The position numbers and the translations under genes are program-made. A stretch of 64,000 bases of DNA, taken from NCBI GenBank assembly GCA_964016885.1, contig OZ024745.1, positions 44,206,001 to 44,270,000 of the forward strand, in the 5' to 3' direction. Below are positions 2,911 through 51,530 of the stretch, in pieces. Each line of letters opens with the position of its first letter. Position 1 is the stretch's first letter. The notes beneath the pieces are model-generated. The model was not told the origin of the DNA. It was given only the letters and a program-made list of their open reading frames with translations, and did no database searches. The stretch comes from Eledone cirrhosa (taxonomy: Eukaryota).

Positions 2911-3877
2911 AAAATGATTTGAAAATTATAAGCAGTCTTTTATTATGATAGAAATATGGTTACGGAACGGTTAATACAGTGTGTATTAAAAGGTTAATTA
3001 CAAATGATTATGCAATAATGAAATGACAAATATTTTTTCTCCTAAATATTCAATTCCACGTCTCACCGTGTTCAATATTGTCCATCTCAACCATCAAAAT
3101 CCAAAGTCTTGAAAAGCTGTAGGCGTTGAGAAAGGGATGTAAACCGTCTTTCTCCATCGTCCCTGCTCACCAGCCAACCTCCTGTTTTTCACCATCTTCA
3201 TGTTACTCTGACCCAGAGTTATTCTTATACCTTTTTCATTAGTTGTTTGTTCATGCAGAACTGCATTCACTTGAGGTATGTTATCATGGCGTCGTGTTAA
3301 AAGACGAAACCATTCCATTTCTAATAGTTTCACAAATGATAGAAGTGTTGCTCGGTTCGCAGTTTTCCCAATAAAAGACAGCTAAAATAACAGTTCCCAA
3401 TAAAGAACAGTTGAAATTACTATTACTATTTTTAAAAAGAAATATTAATCTTAGTCAAGTACTGAGTGGATATAATCGACACTCCCAACCCCATATTGCT
3501 AGCCTTGTGCTAAAATTAGAAGCAATTATTTACCAAAGTTGCTGTAGCTGCTACAATCCGACCTATAGCAATTCTTTCATGTAGATTCCAGTCGTCATTC
3601 AAACTGTGGACACCACACACGCGATCACCAAATATCAATTCAAGATCCGACTTGATTTCACCAATATACTGTTCTACAGCGTGTAACGACAGCTTACTGT
3701 ATGTGTGTGTCAGTACACACACACACACACATATATATAAGCAAAAGGGATATTCAATTTGTTGTTAATTCAACAAATATAAATGTTTATAACTGATTCA
3801 AAGCACTCGACAAGTTTTCTGGAGTATAATATTCAATGATATTAGATAAATGGAAACTATATTTATAAAACCATATT

Positions 3878-3938
3878 TATTCTATTATATATATTTCAAA
3901 GGTACCAAAACTTTGGTACGCTCTCATCAGATAAAATA
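3878..3938 (-). ncRNA. Minimal type I hammerhead ribozyme (family A, left arm)
   Basis: Minus strand: TATTTTAT-CTGATGA-GAGCGTACCAAAGTTTTGGTACCTTT-GAAA-TATATA-TA-ATAGAATA. Confidence 0.8.
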
Positions 3939-4057
3939 CAAAGTTTGTTTTATAAATATTGACATAACCAGTAAAAAATAACTTAACGGCTCAGGAAAAA
4001 CTTGAACCGTTAAGTTATTTTTTCCTGGTTATGTCAATATTTATAAAACAAACTTTG

Positions 4058-4118
4058 TATTTTATCTGATGAGTGCGTACCAAAGTTTTGGTACCTTTGA
4101 AATATATATAATAGAATA
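4058..4118 (+). ncRNA. Minimal type I hammerhead ribozyme (family A, right arm)
   Basis: Stem I TATTTTAT/ATAGAATA, CTGATGA at 4066-4072, stem II GTACCAAA/TTTGGTAC, GAAA at 4099-4102, palindromic stem III and an AUA site. Confidence 0.8.
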
Positions 4119-4157
4119 AATATGGTTTTATAAATATAGTTTCCATTTATTTAATAT

Positions 4158-4204
<47 letters not shown>

Positions 4205-4375
4205 CATGTTAATATAAATTAATATATTTAATAAACACAAATACCAACATATTCATGTTTGTATTGTAAATGACCAAGTTAGCTAGATTGAAATATACTA
4301 ATAATAATATTACAGTATGCCTGCCTTGATTTAAGATAATAAATCAACAAAAACAAATCGTATTGGCAATGGCCG

Positions 4376-4508
4376 TGGTGCTTGGACAAATTTAAATTTC
4401 AAAATCAAACCTGTTCCGTAGACAGGTTTAAACCTTAAAATCCAAATATGTTTCGAATCATGAAAAAGTGGAAGAAATACCGCATTTTGATCTCCTCAGC
4501 AAGCACTA
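4376..4508 (-). ncRNA. Type I hammerhead ribozyme with long stem III (family B)
   Basis: Reverse complement of 5454-5586. A second minus-strand copy at about 4926-5043 has a deletion in stem III. Confidence 0.8.
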
Positions 4509-5453
4509 TAAAAATTGGTATGTTCCACTTCAAAATAGTTAGAAAGACTGTTTAACGCACGAGGTAATTTCACGCGGTTATCCAGTGTCTAGCTAGTCTC
4601 ATACTCGTGCTGCTAGAAATAACAGCCGTTTGTATGGGGCTAAAATTCAGCTCAACGAAGGAGCAGTGATAAATCAATAATAATGAGTTCAAAACTCAGG
4701 TAGTCTTTTACAATGAAATAGCTCAAAGAAAGAGTATTTCTGAGCCGTGTAATACATGTTAATATAAATTAATATATTTGATAAACACAAATAACAACAT
4801 ATTCATGTTTGTATTGTAAATGACCAAGTTAGCTAGATTGAAATATACTAATAATAATATTACAGTATGCCTGTCTTGATTTAAGATAATAAATCAACAA
4901 AAACAAATCGTATTGGCAATGGCCGTGGTGCTTGGACAAATCAAACCTGTTCCGTAGACAGGTTTAAACCTTAAAATCCAAATATGTTTCGAATAATGAA
5001 AAAGTGGAAGAAATACCGCATTTTGATCTCCTCAGCAAGCACTTGCCAATACGATTTGTTTTTGTTGATTTATTATCTTAAATCAAGACAGGCATACTGT
5101 AATATTATTATTAGTATATTTCAATCTAGCTAACTTGGTCATTTACAATACAAACATGAATATGTTGTTATTTGTGTTTATCAAATATATTAATTTATAT
5201 TAACATGTATTACACGGCTCAGAAATACTCTTTCTTTGAGCTATTTCATTGTAAAAGACTACCTGAGTTTTGAACTCATTATTATTGATTTATCACTGCT
5301 CCTTCGTTGAGCTGAATTTTAGCCCCATACAAACGGCTGTTATTTCTAGCAGCACGAGTATGAGACTAGCTAGACACTGGATAACCGCGTGAAATTACCT
5401 CGTGCGTTAAACAGTCTTTCTAACTATTTTGAAGTGGAACATACCAATTTTTA

Positions 5454-5586
5454 TAGTGCTTGCTGAGGAGATCAAAATGCGGTATTTCTTCCACTTTTTC
5501 ATGATTCGAAACATATTTGGATTTTAAGGTTTAAACCTGTCTACGGAACAGGTTTGATTTTGAAATTTAAATTTGTCCAAGCACCA
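5454..5586 (+). ncRNA. Type I hammerhead ribozyme with about 29-bp stem III and GUC site (family B)
   Basis: Stem I GTGCTTG/CAAGCAC, CTGAGGA at 5463-5469, GAAA at 5508-5511, long stem III hairpin closed by the loop CTACGGA, and GTC at 5575-5577. Confidence 0.85.
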
Positions 5587-5837
5587 CGGCCATTGCCAAT
5601 ACGATTTGTTTTTGTTGATTTATTATCTTAAATCAAGGCAGGCATACTGTAATATTATTATTAGTATATTTCAATCTAGCTAACTTGGTCATTTACAATA
5701 CAAACATGAATATGTTGGTATTTGTGTTTATCAAATATATTAATTTATATTAACATGTATTACACGGCTCAGAAATACTCTTTCTTTGAGCTATTTCATT
5801 GTAAAAGACTACCTGAGGTTTGAACTCATTATTATTG

Positions 5838-5905
<68 letters not shown>

Positions 5906-6120: not shown

Positions 6121-7165
6121 TTGTGTCAGGTCACCAGTTGGTGCTACTGGTAACATGTATCCCAGTACAACCTGTCTCATGGTCGGGTCGTTGGCGACTA
6201 AACTGGCAACCCCACCAAGGTTTCTTGGTGAGGAGGGTGACTTTGGACATCCTGCAGGACTAAAAACAAAACCTGTCAAAGGGCAAAGGAGCTCTTAAGA
6301 GTCAATGGCCATCCAAAATCACCGGGAGAGATGACCCCTTAGCCTTTGTCAAGGCAGAATTCTAGGAGAAGGAAAACTCTGATATAACACCTGCAACCCT
6401 GATGGTATCCAATGATGTTGACTTGTTCTTCTTTTTGGTAAATATCATCTTGGTTAAGAGAGTGGGACTGGCTTTGTGCAGTGCCTTTGCTCACTATAAA
6501 AGCTTCACGGCACAGGCATTGCTTTATATCTGGAGATCTTTCTGCACTTGTCGTTACATGGTACCATGGGCCCAGCACTATGTGTCAATAATTGTCACAG
6601 GTGTAGTGTTTGTACCAGAGTTTTCAAGTCGCTGGCTGGACTAAAAAGTCATATTCGTTCAGCGCATCGGTAGGAGTTCTCCTACATGGATATAAAGTAT
6701 TGGCCGTTCTCGAAAACGAGTTGGCAGCCACCATGTATGTATGTATGTATGTATGTAGAGATGTAGAGAGATGACCCCTTAGCCTTTGTCAAGGCAAGGA
6801 AAACTCTGATATAACACCTGCAACCCTGATGGTATCCAATGATATTGACTTGTTCTTCTTTTGGGTAAATATCATCTTGGTTAAGAGAGTGGGACTGGCT
6901 TTGTGCAGTGCCTTTGCTCACTATAAAAGCTTCACGGCACAGGCATTGCTTTATATCTGGAGATCTCTCTGCACTTGTCGTCACATGGTATCATGGGCCC
7001 AGCACTATGTGTCAATAATTGTCACAAGTATAGTGTTTGTGCCAGAGTTTTCAAGTCGCTGGCTGGACTAAAAAGTCACACTCGTTCAACGCATCGGTAG
7101 GGGTTCTCCTACATGGATATAAAGTAGTGGCCGTACTCGAAAACGAGTTGGCAGCCACCATGTAT
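6121..7165 (+). mobile_element. Internally deleted non-autonomous RTE-like LINE with a partial tandem duplication
   Basis: RTE-type 5' UTR motif CTAGGAGAAGGAAAACTCTGA. 6602-6673 encodes CSVCTRVFKSLAGLKSHIRSAHR*, an RTE-type C-terminal C2H2-like motif. It ends in an (ATGT)n tail, and 6325-6735 is repeated at 6765-7160. Confidence 0.7.
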
Positions 7166-7354
7166 GTATGTACGTATGTATGTCTATATGTGTGTGCATG
7201 TATGTATGTGTGTGTAAATGGCTGACTAAACAGACACGAGATTTCACCACAAAAAAATTTTTTTTTTTTATTTCATACACTTCTTCCTCTCGTCTATCTT
7301 ATGTATACATAACTTTTATTATGTCAACTATATTTTTTCCAAAAAGAAGTTATA

Positions 7355-12010: not shown

Positions 12011-14115
12011 GCTTTCTTTATTAACCACAAGGGTTTACATAAAGTAGACATTAAGGACAGTACAGGACAATACAGGACGGCACAAATGGGCATTTCTGCG
12101 TGTAAAAAAAAAACAGAGGATGTAACAAAAAAATAATAATGAAAAATTCCCCAATACGGGGGAGACTTCCGAGGGACATTCGTGGAGAAAGCCCATTAAA
12201 AAGCCACAATGACCCTGACCACCAGGGCAAGTGCCCTCTCCCAGTTTTCCACCTTTAATTTACATACACATACTCAGAGTAGGCCCATTCACTCGGACCA
12301 TTCTTACCTCTCTCACCCATCTTTCAACAAAATTCTGGGAAGAGAGCACTTCCCTCTCTACCCTGATTTTCCTTTTCAAATGAAATTTGAAAAAGTTAAT
12401 CAGGGCATCACCGAAGAGGTAAGTGCTCGTCTTCAGCCCTTTCAAACGTGTCCACCATACTATCTCTTTCGTCATGGCCACCAGACAGATAAAAACTGCC
12501 TGCCCTTCCCGGCTAAAGGAAGAGGGCGGGGCAATCCTCACGATGGACTCAGCTGATAGCTGGATCCATCCTACACGCGACAGCAGGTGTTCGACATAAA
12601 CCCACAAGTCAGCAATGCTCGGACACTGGACGAGTGCGTGCAGGACGGTTTCGTCGCCCTGCGCGCATCTCGGACATGCCCGGCTGCCCTCCATGCTTGT
12701 AGAGTTTATCCTGAACTGGCAAAGCTCCTCGGTAGCACTGCCAGGCCAGGGATTTCTGGAAGTTGTCCATAGGCCAGGGCCCGAAAGTTCTTCCGAAGAG
12801 ATTGGCTAGTTGATTTTCGTCGACGCCTAGAGTTTCACCAAGTACGTCGTCGCACTTCCCCTCCACTTATCCCCTATAGAACGCCAAGGTGGAGTTTCCA
12901 CCGATCACATTGCCTGATTGGTCGAGGGCTGTGAGCGCCTGAAGACATTCCAGTCTCCAAGCGCTCCCTCTCGGTCTTCGCTTGACGCAGGACTGCAGCT
13001 CCGTCAAGGAGACGAGCTGGGGAAAGACGCGTCTAGCAAACGGCGACCACACCTGATCACCGTCGAGGAAGAGGTGGAGATGTCGTAGCCTGAGCGCGTG
13101 TCTGCGCATCATCAGCCACGGCATGCCCAGACCCCCACGTAGCGGTGTTGACAGCAGATGGACCGCCTGACCATCGAAGCGCGTCCGTTCCACAAAAAGC
13201 GAAAGAGCAAACGCTTCAGCGCAGTCAGGCGGGGCTTAGGACAAGGTACGACGGTCAGGCGGTAGTAGATGACGGGCGCGATGTACGCGTTAGCCACCTC
13301 CGCTCGACCTTTCATGGATAGCTTCCTCTCCGCCCATTTCTGGGTGAGAGAAGCCACCCTGCTCGTCACCTGGTCCCAGTTTTTGTCCGTCTGGAGGTCC
13401 AGACCGAACCAGAATCCTAGCAATTTACCCGGTCCGTCCGTCCAGCGCCCGACAACGCTGTTGGACGGCATGGACCTGCTTCTCCAGGTGCCGAGCTGCA
13501 GGCCCACTGACTTATCCTGGTTGATCATTGTTCCTGTCACCGCTTCGTATTCTCTTAGTGTAGTGCCGATCGCCTCGATGTGTTTGGCGTTCGACACCAC
13601 TACGGTGACATCGTCCGCATATGCTGACACGGATCTTCCGCATCCTAGTTCGCGCGGGACCCCCCTCAACGTCTCCAGTTTGTGCAGTAATGGCTCGAGA
13701 GTCAATACGTACAAGAGGGACGAGAGAGGACATCCTTGGCGGACCGAGCGCATGGTGTTGAACGGTTCTGAAAGGTGACCGTTCACTCTCACCACAGAGC
13801 AGATGTCGCTGTGCATGGCAGCGATCCAGCCTCAGTGGCTGAGAGCCACGGCAGTCCGTCGAGGTAGACACTAAAGTCCATCCCTCGATCCGGCCCGCCG
13901 CTGCCCCCGAACAGCTGAGCGAAGTGTCGCTGAAAAGCTTCACACATTTACCCGGGATCGAGTAGCATGCGCCCGTCGTGGTTCACCAAAGACCGGATCG
14001 TGGCTTTGTTGCCACGACGCGCCTCCGCCACTCGGGCCCATTAAACGGCTTTCGGCCCCTCGTGTCTGAGAGCACGCACCCTAGCTCTGATAACGCAGCC
14101 TTCGTGCTTTGCATT
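12011..14115 (-). mobile_element. 5'-truncated L1/Tx1-clade LINE with an 11-bp TSD
   Basis: GTAGTAATAAT at 12000-12010 and 14116-14126; AATAAA near the 3' end on the minus strand; GC-rich relative to the host. Confidence 0.85.
12260..14115 (-). pseudogene. Frameshifted L1/Tx1 ORF2 (reverse transcriptase and C-terminal zinc knuckle)
   Basis: SVRQGCPLS, YADDVT and INQDKS in 13112-13816; CPRCAQGDETVLHALVQC in 12260-12694; split over four frames. Confidence 0.9.
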
Positions 14116-18629: not shown

Positions 18630-19056
<427 letters not shown>

Positions 19057-19221
19057 AATTAGTATATCTACTAACATATATATACAGATGCATACCTATG
19101 CCAGCAAATATATAGGTTTTGTCTTAGTAACTTTGTGGTTCAATGCATGGAGATGCAGAACAATAATATGAGAGACGTAAAATAAGAAAATTATAAAAAT
19201 TAACTTACTTACTAAAATTTC

Positions 19222-19303
19222 ACTCCAACTAATTAGTTTTTGAAAGGGAATAAACATAGTTTCCGAAGAAACGTACGGAGAAGCCTTTCGTCATCAGGGA
19301 AGT
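19222..19303 (-). ncRNA. Type I hammerhead ribozyme (family D, left arm)
   Basis: Reverse complement of 20107-20188, with stem I 3' strand GGAGT. Confidence 0.65.
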
Positions 19304-20106
19304 CTATTCTCAGCTAAGTTTCCAGGCAATACGTGGACACAGGGAACTTATACAAAAATAATTCAGTGGATGGAAAAAAGCAAAGCGTGGACTAAGTTCC
19401 AAGCCATTGAAAAAAATCACTGCCTACTGCGTCGGTGGCAAATTCAAAAGAATCAATCACGTGACATCGAGGTCAATCAGTGAAGAGTGGTTTGTTAAGA
19501 AGACAGCAGCCGGACCGTTACTATGAACTATAGTAGCAGTTTTGGCCAATTTTGGCTCGACAAAATAATTTGGAGATAATTATAAAGAATTAGTATATCT
19601 ACTAACATATATATACAGATGCATACCTATGCCAGCAAATATATAGGTTTTGTCTTAGTAACTTTGTGGTTCAATGTATGGGGATGCAGAAGAATAATAT
19701 GAGAGACGTAAAATAAGAAAATTATAAAAATTAACTTACTTACTAAAATTTCACTCCAACTAATTAGTTTCTGAAAGGGAATAAACATAGTTTCCGAAGA
19801 AACGTACGTAGATATACTAATTCTTTATAATTATCTCCAAATTATTTTGTCGAGCCAAAATTGTCCAAAACTGCTACTATAGTTCATAGTAACGGTCCGG
19901 CTGCTGTCTTCTTAACAAACCACTCTTCACTGATTGACCTCGATGTCACGTGATTGATTCTTTTGAATTTGCCACCGACGCAGTAGGCAGTGATTTTTTT
20001 CAATGGCTTGGAACTTAGTCCACGCTTTGCTTTTTTCCATCCACTGAATTATTTTTGTATAAGTTCCCTGTGTCCACGTATTGCCTGGAAACTTAGCTGA
20101 GAATAG

Positions 20107-20188
20107 ACTTCCCTGATGACGAAAGGCTTCTCCGTACGTTTCTTCGGAAACTATGTTTATTCCCTTTCAGAAACTAATTAGTTGGGGT
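20107..20188 (+). ncRNA. Type I hammerhead ribozyme (family D, right arm)
   Basis: ACTTCC-CTGATGA(20113)-CGAA...TTCG-GAAA(20147)-CTA...TAG-TT-GGGGT, with a GUU site. Stem I is short and weak. Confidence 0.65.
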
Positions 20189-20347
20189 GAAATTTTAGTA
20201 AGTAAGTTAATTTTTATAATTTTCTTATATATATATATATATATATATACATACACACATACACAAATAAAATATAGAGTTATTAACTCATATTGATACC
20301 CTGCAATTAACAAGCTCAAAGTATAAATACTGAGCATTATAATATTA

Positions 20348-22471: not shown

Positions 22472-22678
22472 TAATAATAATAAATTTGAAGACTAAAATC
22501 CAAAGAGGGCTCGATAAGGATAAATATATATCAAATATATAAGAACCGTAGAGCAAATATTTATTAAAATAACAGATTAAAGTTTAAGCAAAGAATCGCT
22601 GCTTTCACTATTAACGGGATCTTCTGAAACTAACAAAGTCAATCTGTGAACGCAGAAGTGAATATTTAAAAAAACGTT

Positions 22679-23197
22679 GCACATAACATCACAGCTTCAA
22701 ATTTAGCTAAACTACCTAGCCGTAGGAACACGTGCAACCCTGTAGTTAGTACTAATTGTAATTGTAGGAATCGGGTTGACTGCCCCCTATCCGGGAAATG
22801 CCTCTCTAGTAACATTGTCTACAAATGTAAGGTTGAAACACCCACGTCCCGTAGGGCCTACATAGGGTTAACCGTCAATAGATTCAAGCAGCGTCTTTAC
22901 ATGCATACCCATTCTTTTCGTTTCCCTTTAAGAAGGAATATGACGTCACTTTCAGCTTATATCTGGAGTCTAAAAGACAACCACACCCAATATAAGTTAC
23001 ACTGGGAGATCCTAGCTAGAGCTAGATCGTATAACGGAAATAAAAGACCATGTGACCTCTGCGCCGCTGAGGCCCTGGAAATACTCTACGCCAAAGACCA
23101 CATCTTAAACAAAAAATCTGAGGCAATTTCGGCTTGTAAACATAAATTGCACAAAACTTTCCTGTATTACAGCCCCACATTATACCCTAACGGATAG
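22679..23197 (+). CDS. PLE C-terminal GIY-YIG endonuclease (partial, no start)
   Basis: Open frame CNCRNRVDCPLSGKC (CxCx5Cx5C), then NIVYKC, YIGLT.NRFKQR..H, LSAYIWSLK, HWEI, CDLC..E, LNKKSE and CKH. Confidence 0.9.
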   Translation, partial: AHNITASNLAKLPSRRNTCNPVVSTNCNCRNRVDCPLSGKCLSSNIVYKCKVETPTSRRAYIGLTVNRFKQRLYMHTHSFRFPLRRNMTSLSAYIWSLKDNHTQYKLHWEILARARSYNGNKRPCDLCAAEALEILYAKDHILNKKSEAISACKHKLHKTFLYYSPTLYPNG

Positions 23198-25667: not shown

Positions 25668-27971
<2,304 letters not shown>

Positions 27972-30856: not shown

Positions 30857-31471
30857 AATGTTGGATTTGTTAGTCTATTGTAGTCTTGTACAGTGACAAG
30901 GCCACAACTAATGAAACAAATGTTGGATTTGTTAGTCTATTGTAGTCTTGTACAGTGACAAGGCCACAACTAATGAAACAAATGTTGGATTTGTTAGTCT
31001 ATTGTAGTCTTGTACAGTGACAAGGCCACAACTAATGAAACAAATGTTGGATTTGTTAGTCTATTGTAGTCTTGTACAGTGACAAGGCCACAACTAATGA
31101 AACAAATGTTGGATTTGTTAGTCTATTGTAGTCTTGTACAGTGACAAGGCCACAACTAATGAAACAAATGTTGGATTTGTTAGTCTATTGTAGTCTTGTA
31201 CAGTGACAAGGCCACAACTAATGAAACAAATGTTGGATTTGTTAGTCTATTGTAGTCTTATACAGTGACAAGGCCACAACTAATGAAACAAATGTTGGAT
31301 TTGTTAGTCTATTGTAGTCTTATACAGTGACAAGGCCACAACTAATGAAACAAATGTTGGATTTGTTAGTCTATTGTAGTCTTATACAGTGACAAGGCCA
31401 CAACTAATGAAACAAATGTTGGATTTGTTAGTCTATTGTAGTCTTATACAGTGACAAGGCCACAACTAATG
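30857..31471. repeat. 62-bp tandem repeat, about 10 copies
   Basis: Unit AATGTTGGATTTGTTAGTCTATTGTAGTCTTRTACAGTGACAAGGCCACAACTAATGAAACA starts at 30857, 30919, 30981 and so on. Confidence 0.98.
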
Positions 31472-46313: not shown

Positions 46314-46934
46314 ATAGAGAAATTAATGTGAGCAAGAAGTCAACAGTATTTCATAATATATAAGTGACTATAACGTCAAAATGGAAAATAATTAACGTAA
46401 GATATGGGAAAATAATTCAAACTCAATTAAAAAAAAATCAAGTCAGAGATTTTATCCACAGATTTTGTGAAATCCAGGGGAAAAAACCAATAGAGTCTTA
46501 ACTCAGAATAAAATAAAGTTTAAATACTCATCCTTCAATTTGGAAAAATTACAAATGCTCTATATAGTCTTAAAAAGACTATTTCACGACACTTTTCAGT
46601 GGGATTAGTCATGGTTGGAGTCATTCCTCAGTAGAGCTCAACACGATAACCCAAAGTACCACTGCCAAAATATGCCAAAAAGGGTATTTAAAAGCAGGCT
46701 AGTTCACCTCGTGCGGAATTTTGAAAATAAACATACATGGAGAAACATGGCTGGTGACGTCAGAATGAGACGAATGTCTGTTTACAAGAAACAGCAGTCA
46801 TAAACATTACACACACACATAGTTGAACAATGGTTGATTTAAGAAGTATTGGTAAAATGTGTGCGTTTCAACGCAAATGACTATATTAATAATAGTTAAG
46901 AAAATCGAAGAAAGTACTCCTTAAGGCTCATGAG

Positions 46935-49860: not shown

Positions 49861-50119
49861 TCGTGTATTGACCAGATCAGATGTAATCCAGCAGATATAA
49901 TAATATCAATAATAACAATGACAATAATAGTAATCATGAGTAGATATATTATCAAAAGAGATGTGTTCATCACATCATCTTTTTTCAAATAGTATATCTT
50001 TAATTATATTATTTATCCACAGTCTCCTTCATCTCTGAAGGAGGCATGTTGTGACGGTAGGCTATGAATTTTAGCAGGTCAAGCAACGATGAAGAAGCTT
50101 CGTCGTAGGCCTGAATTTT

Positions 50120-51530
50120 GTTGGCGAATACTCTACCTCAACAATGGTGAAACTCTGTCGTACCCCTGCTGTTAATGTTATTGGTCAATACTCCACCTCA
50201 ACAATGGTGAACCTCTGTCGTAGGCCTGCTGTTAATGTTATTGGTCAATACTCTACCTCAACAATGGTGAGCCTCTGTCGTAGGCCTGCTGTTAATGTTA
50301 TTGGTCAATACTCTACCTCAACAATGGTGAATCTCTGTCGTAGGCCTGCTGTTAATGTTATTGGTCAATACTCTACCTCAACAATGGTGAACCTCTGTCG
50401 TAAGCCTGCTGTTAATGTTATTGGTCAATACTCTACCTCAACAATGGTGAACCTCTGTCGTAAGCCTGCTGTTAATGTTATTGGTCAATACTCTACCTCA
50501 ACAATGGTGAGCCTCTGTCGTAGGCCTGCTGTTAATGTTATTGGTCAATACTCTACCTCAACAATGGTGAACCTCTGTCGTAGGCCTGCTGTTAATGTTA
50601 TTGGTCAATACTCTACCTCAACAATGGTGAACCTCTGTCGTAGGCCTGCTGTTAATGTTATTGGTCAATACTCCACCTCAACAATGGTGAGCCTCTGTCG
50701 TAGGCCTGCTGTTAATGTTATTGGTCAATACTCTACCTCAACAATGGTGAACCTCTGTCGTAAGCCTGCTGTTAATGTTATTGGTCAATACTCTACCTCA
50801 ACAATGGTGAACCTCTGTCGTAGGCCTGCTGTTAATGTTATTGGTCAATACTCCACCTCAACAATGGTGAACCTCTGTCGTAGGCCTGCTGTTAATGTTA
50901 TTGGTCAATACTCTACCTCAACAATGGTGAGCCTCTGTCGTAGGCCTGCTGTTAATGTTATTGGTCAATACTCCACCTCAACAATGGTGAACCTCTGTCG
51001 TAGGCCTGCTGTTAATGTTATTGGTCAATACTCTACCTCAACAATGGTGAACCTCTGTCGTAGGCCTGCTGTTAATGTTATTGGTCAATACTCCACCTCA
51101 ACAATGGTGAGCCTCTGTCGTAGGCCTGCTGTTAATGTTATTGGTCAATACTCCACCTCAACAATGGTGAAACTCTGTCGTAGGCCTGCTGTTAATGTTA
51201 TTGGTCAATACTCTACCTCAACAATGGTGAACCTCTGTCGTAGGCCTGCTGTTAATGTTATTGGTCAATACTCCACCTCAACAATGGTGAACCTCTGTCG
51301 TAGGCCTGCTGTTAATGTTATTGGTCAATACTCCATCTTAGCAATGGGGAAACTCTATCGTTCGTTCATTGTTAATGCTATCGTGAATACTCCATCTTAG
51401 CAATGAGGAAACTAAATTGTTATGTCACTGTTGGTGTTGTTGGACAATTATCCACATTAGAAATGGTAAAACTAGATCGTTCGGTCACTGTCAATGTTGT
51501 TGGTCAATATTCCATCTTAGCAATGATGAA
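50120..51530 (+). repeat. 60-bp tandem repeat: about 20 near-identical copies with diverged flanking copies, one frame open (50144-51400)
   Basis: The unit is exactly 60 bp and translates as MVNLCRRPAVNVIGQYSTST. Confidence 0.97.

Follow-up and report, generated by a model that had tools for sequence, protein, structure and literature searches.

The window, that is, the whole 64,000-nt stretch of Eledone cirrhosa DNA analysed here, carries at positions 4202-5843 an element lying between two (TA)n tracts. It is built of two arms set head to head, with their 5' ends meeting centrally, and both arms are made of a unit of exactly 550 nt that runs from GTC|CAAGCAC to the next GTC|CAAGCAC. Unit positions are numbered from the first nucleotide past the predicted cleavage site, and E1 and E2 denote the two 3' ends described below. 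The features are as follows:

4163-4204, left (TA)n tract, probably one half of the site targeted by the insertion (62 of 62 arms of the E1 type enter a TA tract)
4202-5043, minus strand, left arm of 842 bp: unit 428-550, 1-550 and 1-183, with its 3' end at E1 (unit 183)
4202-4384, minus strand, left tail: unit 1-183, ending at E1, with 61G (4324) and 155T (4230)
4378-4506, minus strand, predicted type I hammerhead: stem I of 7 bp, core CUGAGGA/GAAA, long stem III, predicted cut after GUC at 4385
4385-4934, minus strand, one full 550-nt monomer, from cleavage site to cleavage site
4928-5042, minus strand, upstream copy of the hammerhead, lacking 14 nt in stem III, within the unpaired 123-nt centre of the palindrome
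5043, head-to-head arm junction with a 1-nt overlap, where unit 428 meets unit 16
5043-5843, plus strand, right arm of 801 bp: unit 16-550 and 1-266, with its 3' end at E2 (unit 266)
5456-5584, plus strand, predicted type I hammerhead, intact, predicted cut after GUC at 5577
5761-5843, plus strand, 83-nt extension from E1 to E2, on one arm only; counterpart of the 'tail' of Penelope-like elements (PLEs; PMC3846280, PMC8557442, PMC11167929)
5841-5904, right (TA)n tract, probably the second half of that site (52 of 56 E2 arms enter a TA tract)

A previous sequence-only reading had described two arms of about 840 and 800 bp, each longer than one unit, reading straight through the predicted GUC site and devoid of an ORF. 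This is confirmed here: the arms comprise 842 and 801 bp of the 550-nt unit, the cleavage site is read through, and the longest stop-to-stop frame inside the element is 54 aa. Over 718 paired nucleotides there is one difference, the 155T of the left tail, and the left arm contains a pair of cleavage sites spaced by 550 nt, that is, head-to-tail units with at least two ribozymes. The element has a GC content of ~0.29, lacks LTRs, is non-coding and occurs in dispersed copies. A second palindrome, of family A, occupies positions 3732-4163, adjoins the element and has the left (TA)n tract in common with it; this palindrome carries a type I hammerhead motif (CUGAUGA) in both arms, its ends are ~100 nt apart, and its arms differ at 5 of 165 sites.

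A search of the genome (3.0 Gb) with the unit of this family (family B) yielded 2,844 first-look candidates, 40 being scored per search. The sample used for the analysis of ends comprised 136 arms in 86 loci, this locus included, and favours copies like the present one; it excluded 7 arms of duplicated loci, 9 arms with <85% identity (one arm being in both lists) and pieces of <30 nt, and it left out long arms, a separate set of 42 arms being drawn from tail queries. Within the sample, 62 arms ended at unit 181-185 (E1), 56 at 256-271 (E2) and 18 elsewhere, and a TA tract lay beyond 114 of the 118 E1 and E2 arms versus 3 of the 18 arms with other ends. The outer ends of the locus thus coincide with the two ends that are standard throughout the family. 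Among the 44 head-to-head pairs, E1 was combined with E2 in 29, one was E2+E2, none was E1+E1, and 14 had one or two other ends; E1+E2 was thus the combination in 29 of the 30 pairs with both standard ends (p 3e-8). No tail-to-tail pair was found among the 86 loci, and the unpaired arms used both sites (28 E1, 18 E2). The 5' ends were variable, with overlaps of 1-18 nt at 30 of the 44 junctions, and arms reached up to 2.84 units, most of those in head-to-head pairs having 0.2-1.6 units each. The longest alternating TA runs of the unit (158-163, 88-92 and 169-173) were not the main ends, only 3 arms ending at 173. Three like-structured family B palindromes located on one contig (L123, G000:C27:13979177 and C27:12994233) are probably segmental duplicates.

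These results change part of the sequence-only reading. Its statement that the arms end at different positions of the unit stands (183 versus 266), but not as scattered points, both positions being standard for the family. Priming at different AT-rich points of a circular template, for which it had predicted dispersed endpoints among genomic copies, is rejected, since 118 of the 136 arms end at two sites. It had also proposed that a fixed 3' end together with attached PLE ORFs would speak against a circle: the ends are indeed fixed, though at two sites, and no PLE ORF is attached. With the 3' ends fixed in this way, the end pattern is uninformative on circularity; the two-ended pattern is the signature of the Penelope 'tail'. 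We found no shared fold of the E1-E2 segment across families that was better than shuffles (z 0.40, -0.53 and -0.15, with a poor alignment), and a hairpin after E1 that had been spotted by eye was likewise unsupported against shuffles.

The same layout is present in two sister families of this genome, B' (unit of 517 nt) and B'' (unit of 530-545 nt). In B', 49 of 66 arms ended at 176 or 244 and E1+E2 accounted for 22 of 24 pairs; in B'' (3,595 first-look candidates; loci L207-L225), 25 of 36 arms ended at 171 or 256. In view of these units, and of the range of 51-972 bp published for such repeats (Li et al. 2026 preprint), the earlier remark that a 550-nt unit is unusually long does not hold. 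The B' arrays L191 (G000:C3:202355000-202362500), L192, L193 and L195 have 2.9-7.2 units, fixed ends and inverted partner arms. In the long B' arrays, alleles are shared by subsets of units, which points to later DNA-level duplication or conversion, and the length of such arrays was therefore rejected as proof that copying was of the rolling-circle type. Multi-unit sources can also be replenished by expansion at the DNA level. At 19054-20228 the window contains a further element of this head-to-head type, again within (TA)n, with a period of ~530 bp, ends ~128 nt apart, a CUGAUGA...GAAA core and arms that differ at 3 of 421 sites. At L160 (G000:C3:161916000-161925000), an inverted duplication of ~7 kb has identical B and B'' copies at both sides, with a different PLE-like frame (35-44% identity) between the B and B'' copies.

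The assignment of the three ribozyme copies of the locus to the type I hammerhead class draws on the core letters (CUGAGGA, GAAA and GUC), on the predicted fold (z -3.6) and on covariation, and self-cleavage is predicted. Stem I has 7 bp, stem III ~30 bp, and stem II just 2 bp plus an internal loop; an Rfam scan of the window returned no family at gathering score. Across the sister families, both sides change in 5 of the 7 stem I pairs, with 95.5% of cells paired, in a set of 6 sequences from 3 related families that represent only about three independent lineages. The ribozyme is conserved between subfamilies, with polymorphism at 3 of 129 sites versus 50 of 421 elsewhere (p 5e-4), the singleton rates being equal. 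Folding of the monomer as a circle gave a structure that lacks stem I and exceeds 40 shuffles in stability (z -4.7). In B'', 17 of 18 copies have a UUGAUGA core, in which U replaces C3 while G8 is kept, and ends are still fixed; following the account of the C3-G8 pair in PMC11167929, cleavage would likely be slower. In Xenopus, only 1 of 9 elements showed self-cleavage (Li et al. 2026 preprint, 10.64898/2026.07.22.740005). A lone type I hammerhead-like motif, with stems of 6, 5 and 7 bp, is found upstream of a (TA)n tract at 46557-46637 (minus strand) of the window. As for an snRNA-type promoter, 18 comparisons with the DNA upstream of U6 and U2 genes showed no likeness (best p 0.03); these genes form tandem clusters with periods of ~1.8 kb (U6, G000:C19:31780605-31840331) and ~2.2 kb (U2, C3:307349256-307453739).

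To get insight into the template, we used the 42 arms picked by tail queries, a set that is selected for length, with this locus excluded and 4 matches left out. Thirty-three of them reach the first cleavage site, 31 of the 33 cross it, and 15 arms are longer than one unit, which upholds the earlier proposal of reverse transcription of a circular or concatemeric RNA beyond one unit. The cleavage junctions were exact over 8 nt in 117 of 126 cases, the rest having one substitution (7) or one deletion (2), insertions not being scored. Subfamily alleles agreed between tandem units (1229:26) and between paired arms (758:7), whereas random pairs from different loci disagreed in 36%; this agreement within loci indicates that lineages pass through one unit. 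At sites present in three copies, rare alleles were confined to one unit in 32 cases, common to all three in 4 and shared by two of the three in a single case. Outside this locus there was no sign of unit-specific template variants in a register test (26:23), and recurrent differences between units ran in the same direction 23 times and in the opposite one 25 times (278 differences, 41 loci). A template continuous across the cleavage site, together with a one-unit bottleneck, fits a circle.

The 5' ends add a further pattern. They cluster past the second cleavage site, no more than ~30 nt downstream, in B (6 of 31) and B' (14 of 40), with p values derived from assumed backgrounds; a test over a wider zone was weak (p 0.13 and 0.03), and the 5' stops in B did not differ significantly between the first and second sites (p 0.14). 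This pile-up hints at either a ribozyme in its folded state or a true end of the RNA, although a near-palindrome at unit 15-23 could also attract junctions, and it is past the second site that a rolling enzyme would run into RNA that is base-paired with cDNA by then. Stops at exactly one turn (E2 arms 4 of 24 and E1 arms 1 of 33 at one window; 2 of 29 and 0 of 18, respectively, at the other) were not convincing. In paired B arms, the 5' ends lay within 20 nt of each other in 7 of 29 cases versus 2.5 expected (P 0.007), which was not seen in B' and is compatible, in part of the pairs, with fold-back or with an RNA end common to both arms.

At the locus under study, both arms share private variants in register, namely 141T plus 476G (full unit) and 61G (tail), and 68T is present in all four units. 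The arms differ at 1 of 698 sites versus 1.6% in other pairs (P ~1e-4), and other long palindromes are not homogenised (17/673, 12/447 and 6/461). The search for a parent locus gave no candidate in the assembly: the exact 26-nt pattern with 68T had no genome match outside the four units of the locus, and the 14-nt deletion had no exact match among the best 40 scored of 563 candidates. Since one monomer circle alone cannot give in-register variants without later conversion between arms, either an aged multi-unit RNA was copied twice or the arms were converted afterwards. The absence of the parent from the assembly slightly favours conversion; the unconverted state of the other long palindromes favours a linear source. 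Neither arm contains the other here, this being one of 4 such pairs among 29. A direct origin of the present insertion from a monomer circle, which would then need later arm-to-arm conversion, seems to us somewhat doubtful.

The insertion was likely made by the endonuclease and reverse transcriptase of a PLE. An abundant coding element of this genome (62,384 first-look candidates) has a 726-aa frame with DKT, CxCX5C, CxxC and CxH motifs (matched by eye), which are those of the (TA)n-targeting Hydra clade of PLEs (PMC8557442), and Pfam and PDB searches with this frame gave no match; on the motifs, read against that source, it is a putative Hydra-type PLE. Its ends (47 in 30 loci) lay at one site in 15 cases, at another 89 nt further in 18 and elsewhere in 5, while 9 further ends look like alignment run-on from the first site. 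Comparison of unit B with 34 loci of one PLE family disclosed nothing beyond short AT-rich words, and thus the coding PLE, having no sequence in common with unit B, shows the mechanism and not the partner. Other PLE families of the genome are present in the flanks of the loci; PLE-like coding fragments were near 12 of the 86 loci, and by coordinates none was directly upstream of a same-strand arm. The element itself is not an autonomous PLE, as it lacks an RT plus GIY-YIG ORF between pseudo-LTRs. Fragments of the abundant PLE-like family are found in the window at 22670-23197 and 25948-27772, with Hydra-clade motifs, an inverted arm and ends 89 nt apart, and most of the copies listed for this family have a ribozyme-like segment with CAGAAGA, not CUGANGA.

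The window has other repeats and frames. There are 1.9 copies of a 427-bp repeat at 6369-7183, with a C2H2-like reading (CxxxFxSLAGLKSHxRxxH), which we take to be possibly the 3' end of a non-LTR retrotransposon, and a broken non-LTR retrotransposon with an RVT_1 match (E 5e-12) at 12260-13831 (minus strand). A 62-bp tandem repeat (9.9 copies, 99% identity) occupies 30857-31471, and a repeat at 50093-51400 reads as an open 435-aa frame of ~23-aa units. The 413-aa open frame at 59462-60703 (plus strand) has no Pfam match and is presumably transposase-like.

We propose that a PLE enzyme acting in trans would nick both strands of (TA)n, that one nick would prime at unit 183 and the other at unit 266, probably on one RNA, and that both cDNAs would cross the cleavage site, halt at variable points and be joined by short microhomology. 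Multi-unit transcripts would in turn self-cleave into monomers, which a host ligase would close, and uniform multi-unit copies would be regenerated from them. PLE-type two-site insertion of family B is in our opinion very probable, and trans nicking, two-site priming and microhomology joining, taken jointly, deserve the same high confidence. The monomer circle as the recycling route of family B is a close call, tipped barely in its favour at best. The chances are even for the mechanism as a whole, in which PLE two-site priming takes place on an RNA that is likely, by a narrow measure, the self-cleaved and re-ligated monomer circle; a circular template is only slightly likelier than a linear one. 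In a mixed cycle, a PLE dimer would prime both (TA)n ends on the 550-nt circle and continue past one full turn, and some insertions, this one included, would derive from uncleaved multi-unit RNA; we consider this possible, with the balance against it. If true, such a mixed circular and linear life cycle could be traced in genomic sequence, and a single short RNA together with a single enzyme would suffice to test it.

The in-register private variants in both arms of this locus are what one would expect if PLE two-site priming used linear RNA, uncleaved or partly cleaved, from earlier multi-unit copies, with DNA-level duplication renewing the sources and no circle involved. The 5' pile-up past the second cleavage site in B and B' (in B'', 5' ends lie at 14-18 in 4 of 19 loci), the B' arrays with subset-shared alleles, the non-canonical core of B'', the paired-arm 5' ends within 20 nt (7 of 29), as if stopping at one RNA end, and the use of uncleaved RNA in vitro (PMC11167929) all point the same way. 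However, the other loci show no unit-specific template variants (26:23; 23:25), multi-unit B arms look inserted whole, the assembly has no parent locus with the variants of this copy, no B array exceeds 2.84 units in 86 loci, and the ribozyme that would cut such a template is strongly conserved. We judge this exclusively linear route unlikely, though it is the alternative to be taken most seriously. Self-priming, in which one cDNA would fold back and copy itself and the endonuclease would act at the remaining fixed site to resolve the second end (PMC3846280), could account for the 25 of 29 B pairs in which one arm is contained in the other ('neither' in 4 versus 10 expected, P 0.005, by a permutation that ignores locus selection) and for the near-perfect palindromes (7 of 29). 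We hold it improbable: at this locus neither arm lies within the other, B' has no such excess, unpaired arms occur at both sites (28 E1, 18 E2), and at L143 the arms are each uniform yet differ from one another at one site.

Copying of linear self-cleaved monomers, with the enzyme, on reaching the 5' end of a monomer, jumping to the 3' end of the following one, would explain the one-unit bottleneck and the stops near the cleavage site. But junctions that are exact in 117 of 126 cases and otherwise show single-base changes (insertions not being scored), the stopping of only 2 of 33 arms at the first site and the lack of a subfamily switch at junctions (at most 3 scattered discordant sites per arm) make it more improbable still. 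The unusual likeness of the arms at this locus (1/718) might suggest a misassembly, which the sequence-only reading had named as a possible objection, or a purely DNA-level satellite rearrangement. Such an origin is hardly credible, because the same fixed-end layout recurs at 29 loci on many contigs, the neighbouring palindromes keep their 5/165 and 3/421 differences, and the arms are unlike in length and at both ends. The preferred reading is PLE two-site priming on RNA, with the self-cleaved and re-ligated monomer circle as an evenly balanced choice of template.

L1 twin priming, in which cDNA synthesis is primed at both target ends and the two products are joined by microhomology into an inversion, resembles family B in its two primed cDNAs, its inversion and its microhomology join. 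It differs in that both starts are fixed and internal here, there is no poly(A), and the arm sequences overlap by up to 700 nt. PLE insertions are truncated at the 5' end, form partial tandems and include an inverted copy, likewise 5'-truncated, as well as a tail of 30-40 bp that is often present at one end only (PMC8557442). The element studied here shows the same 5' truncation, partial tandems, inverted 5'-truncated head-to-head copy and tail on one arm, and its insertion anatomy is of the PLE type, the microsatellite target included, as for a non-autonomous PLE-mobilised element. Hydra-clade PLEs target (TA)n (PMC8557442), and family B shares with them this target and a hammerhead upstream of the ends. 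A PLE protein, PAc, cuts and extends both strands, is a predicted dimer, starts at two internal sites bounding the tail, comparable to the two start sites here, and has uncleaved RNA as its dominant substrate in vitro (PMC11167929); in other PLEs the tail is on one of the inverted repeats, and self-priming has been proposed for inversions (PMC3846280). In contrast with PLEs, the element has no ORF, its tail is 83 nt versus 30-40 nt, and the whole 550-nt unit acts as the pseudo-LTR. To explain the longer-than-unit, inverted copies of PLEs and animal retrozymes, a circle has been proposed (PMC4209133, PMC7229834) and self-priming has been put forward for the inversions (PMC3846280), while uncleaved RNA and two internal starts were found in vitro (PMC11167929). 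Family B offers a substrate that is short and non-coding, whose ends are mapped (unit 183 and 266) and whose pairs strictly combine one end of each kind, a rule that we did not find stated for retrozymes in the literature searched (subscription journals and supplements being outside its coverage); it makes the circle-versus-linear question testable and does not settle it.

On its sequence, the element has the features of a non-LTR retrozyme, with cleavage and circles predicted. Like the metazoan members of this group, it is non-coding and AT-rich, with head-to-tail units, a type I hammerhead motif in each and dispersed multi-unit copies; PLEs co-occur, the unit length falls within 51-972 bp (Li et al. 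2026 preprint, with a mean of 650 for ray-finned fish), and circle-templated PLE retroposition has been proposed. Animal hammerhead repeats form circles of 170-400 nt on northern blots, with PLE-driven retroposition proposed (PMC7229834), circles have been proposed for longer-than-unit PLE copies (PMC4209133), and such repeats would derive from PLE pseudo-LTRs (Li, Clavereau and Pollet 2026, 10.64898/2026.07.22.740005). The unit of 550 nt is longer than those circles, its own circle being predicted from genomic DNA, and stem III has ~30 bp versus the usual 1-2 bp of metazoan type I motifs, a large helix III being reported for fungal and protist PLEs (PMC4209133). Unlike in metazoan retrozymes, the arms, set in head-to-head pairs, mostly have 0.2-1.6 units, and no link in sequence to a PLE repeat was found among the 34 PLE loci compared. 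With these differences, the element is a further member of the PLE-dependent non-LTR retrozymes.
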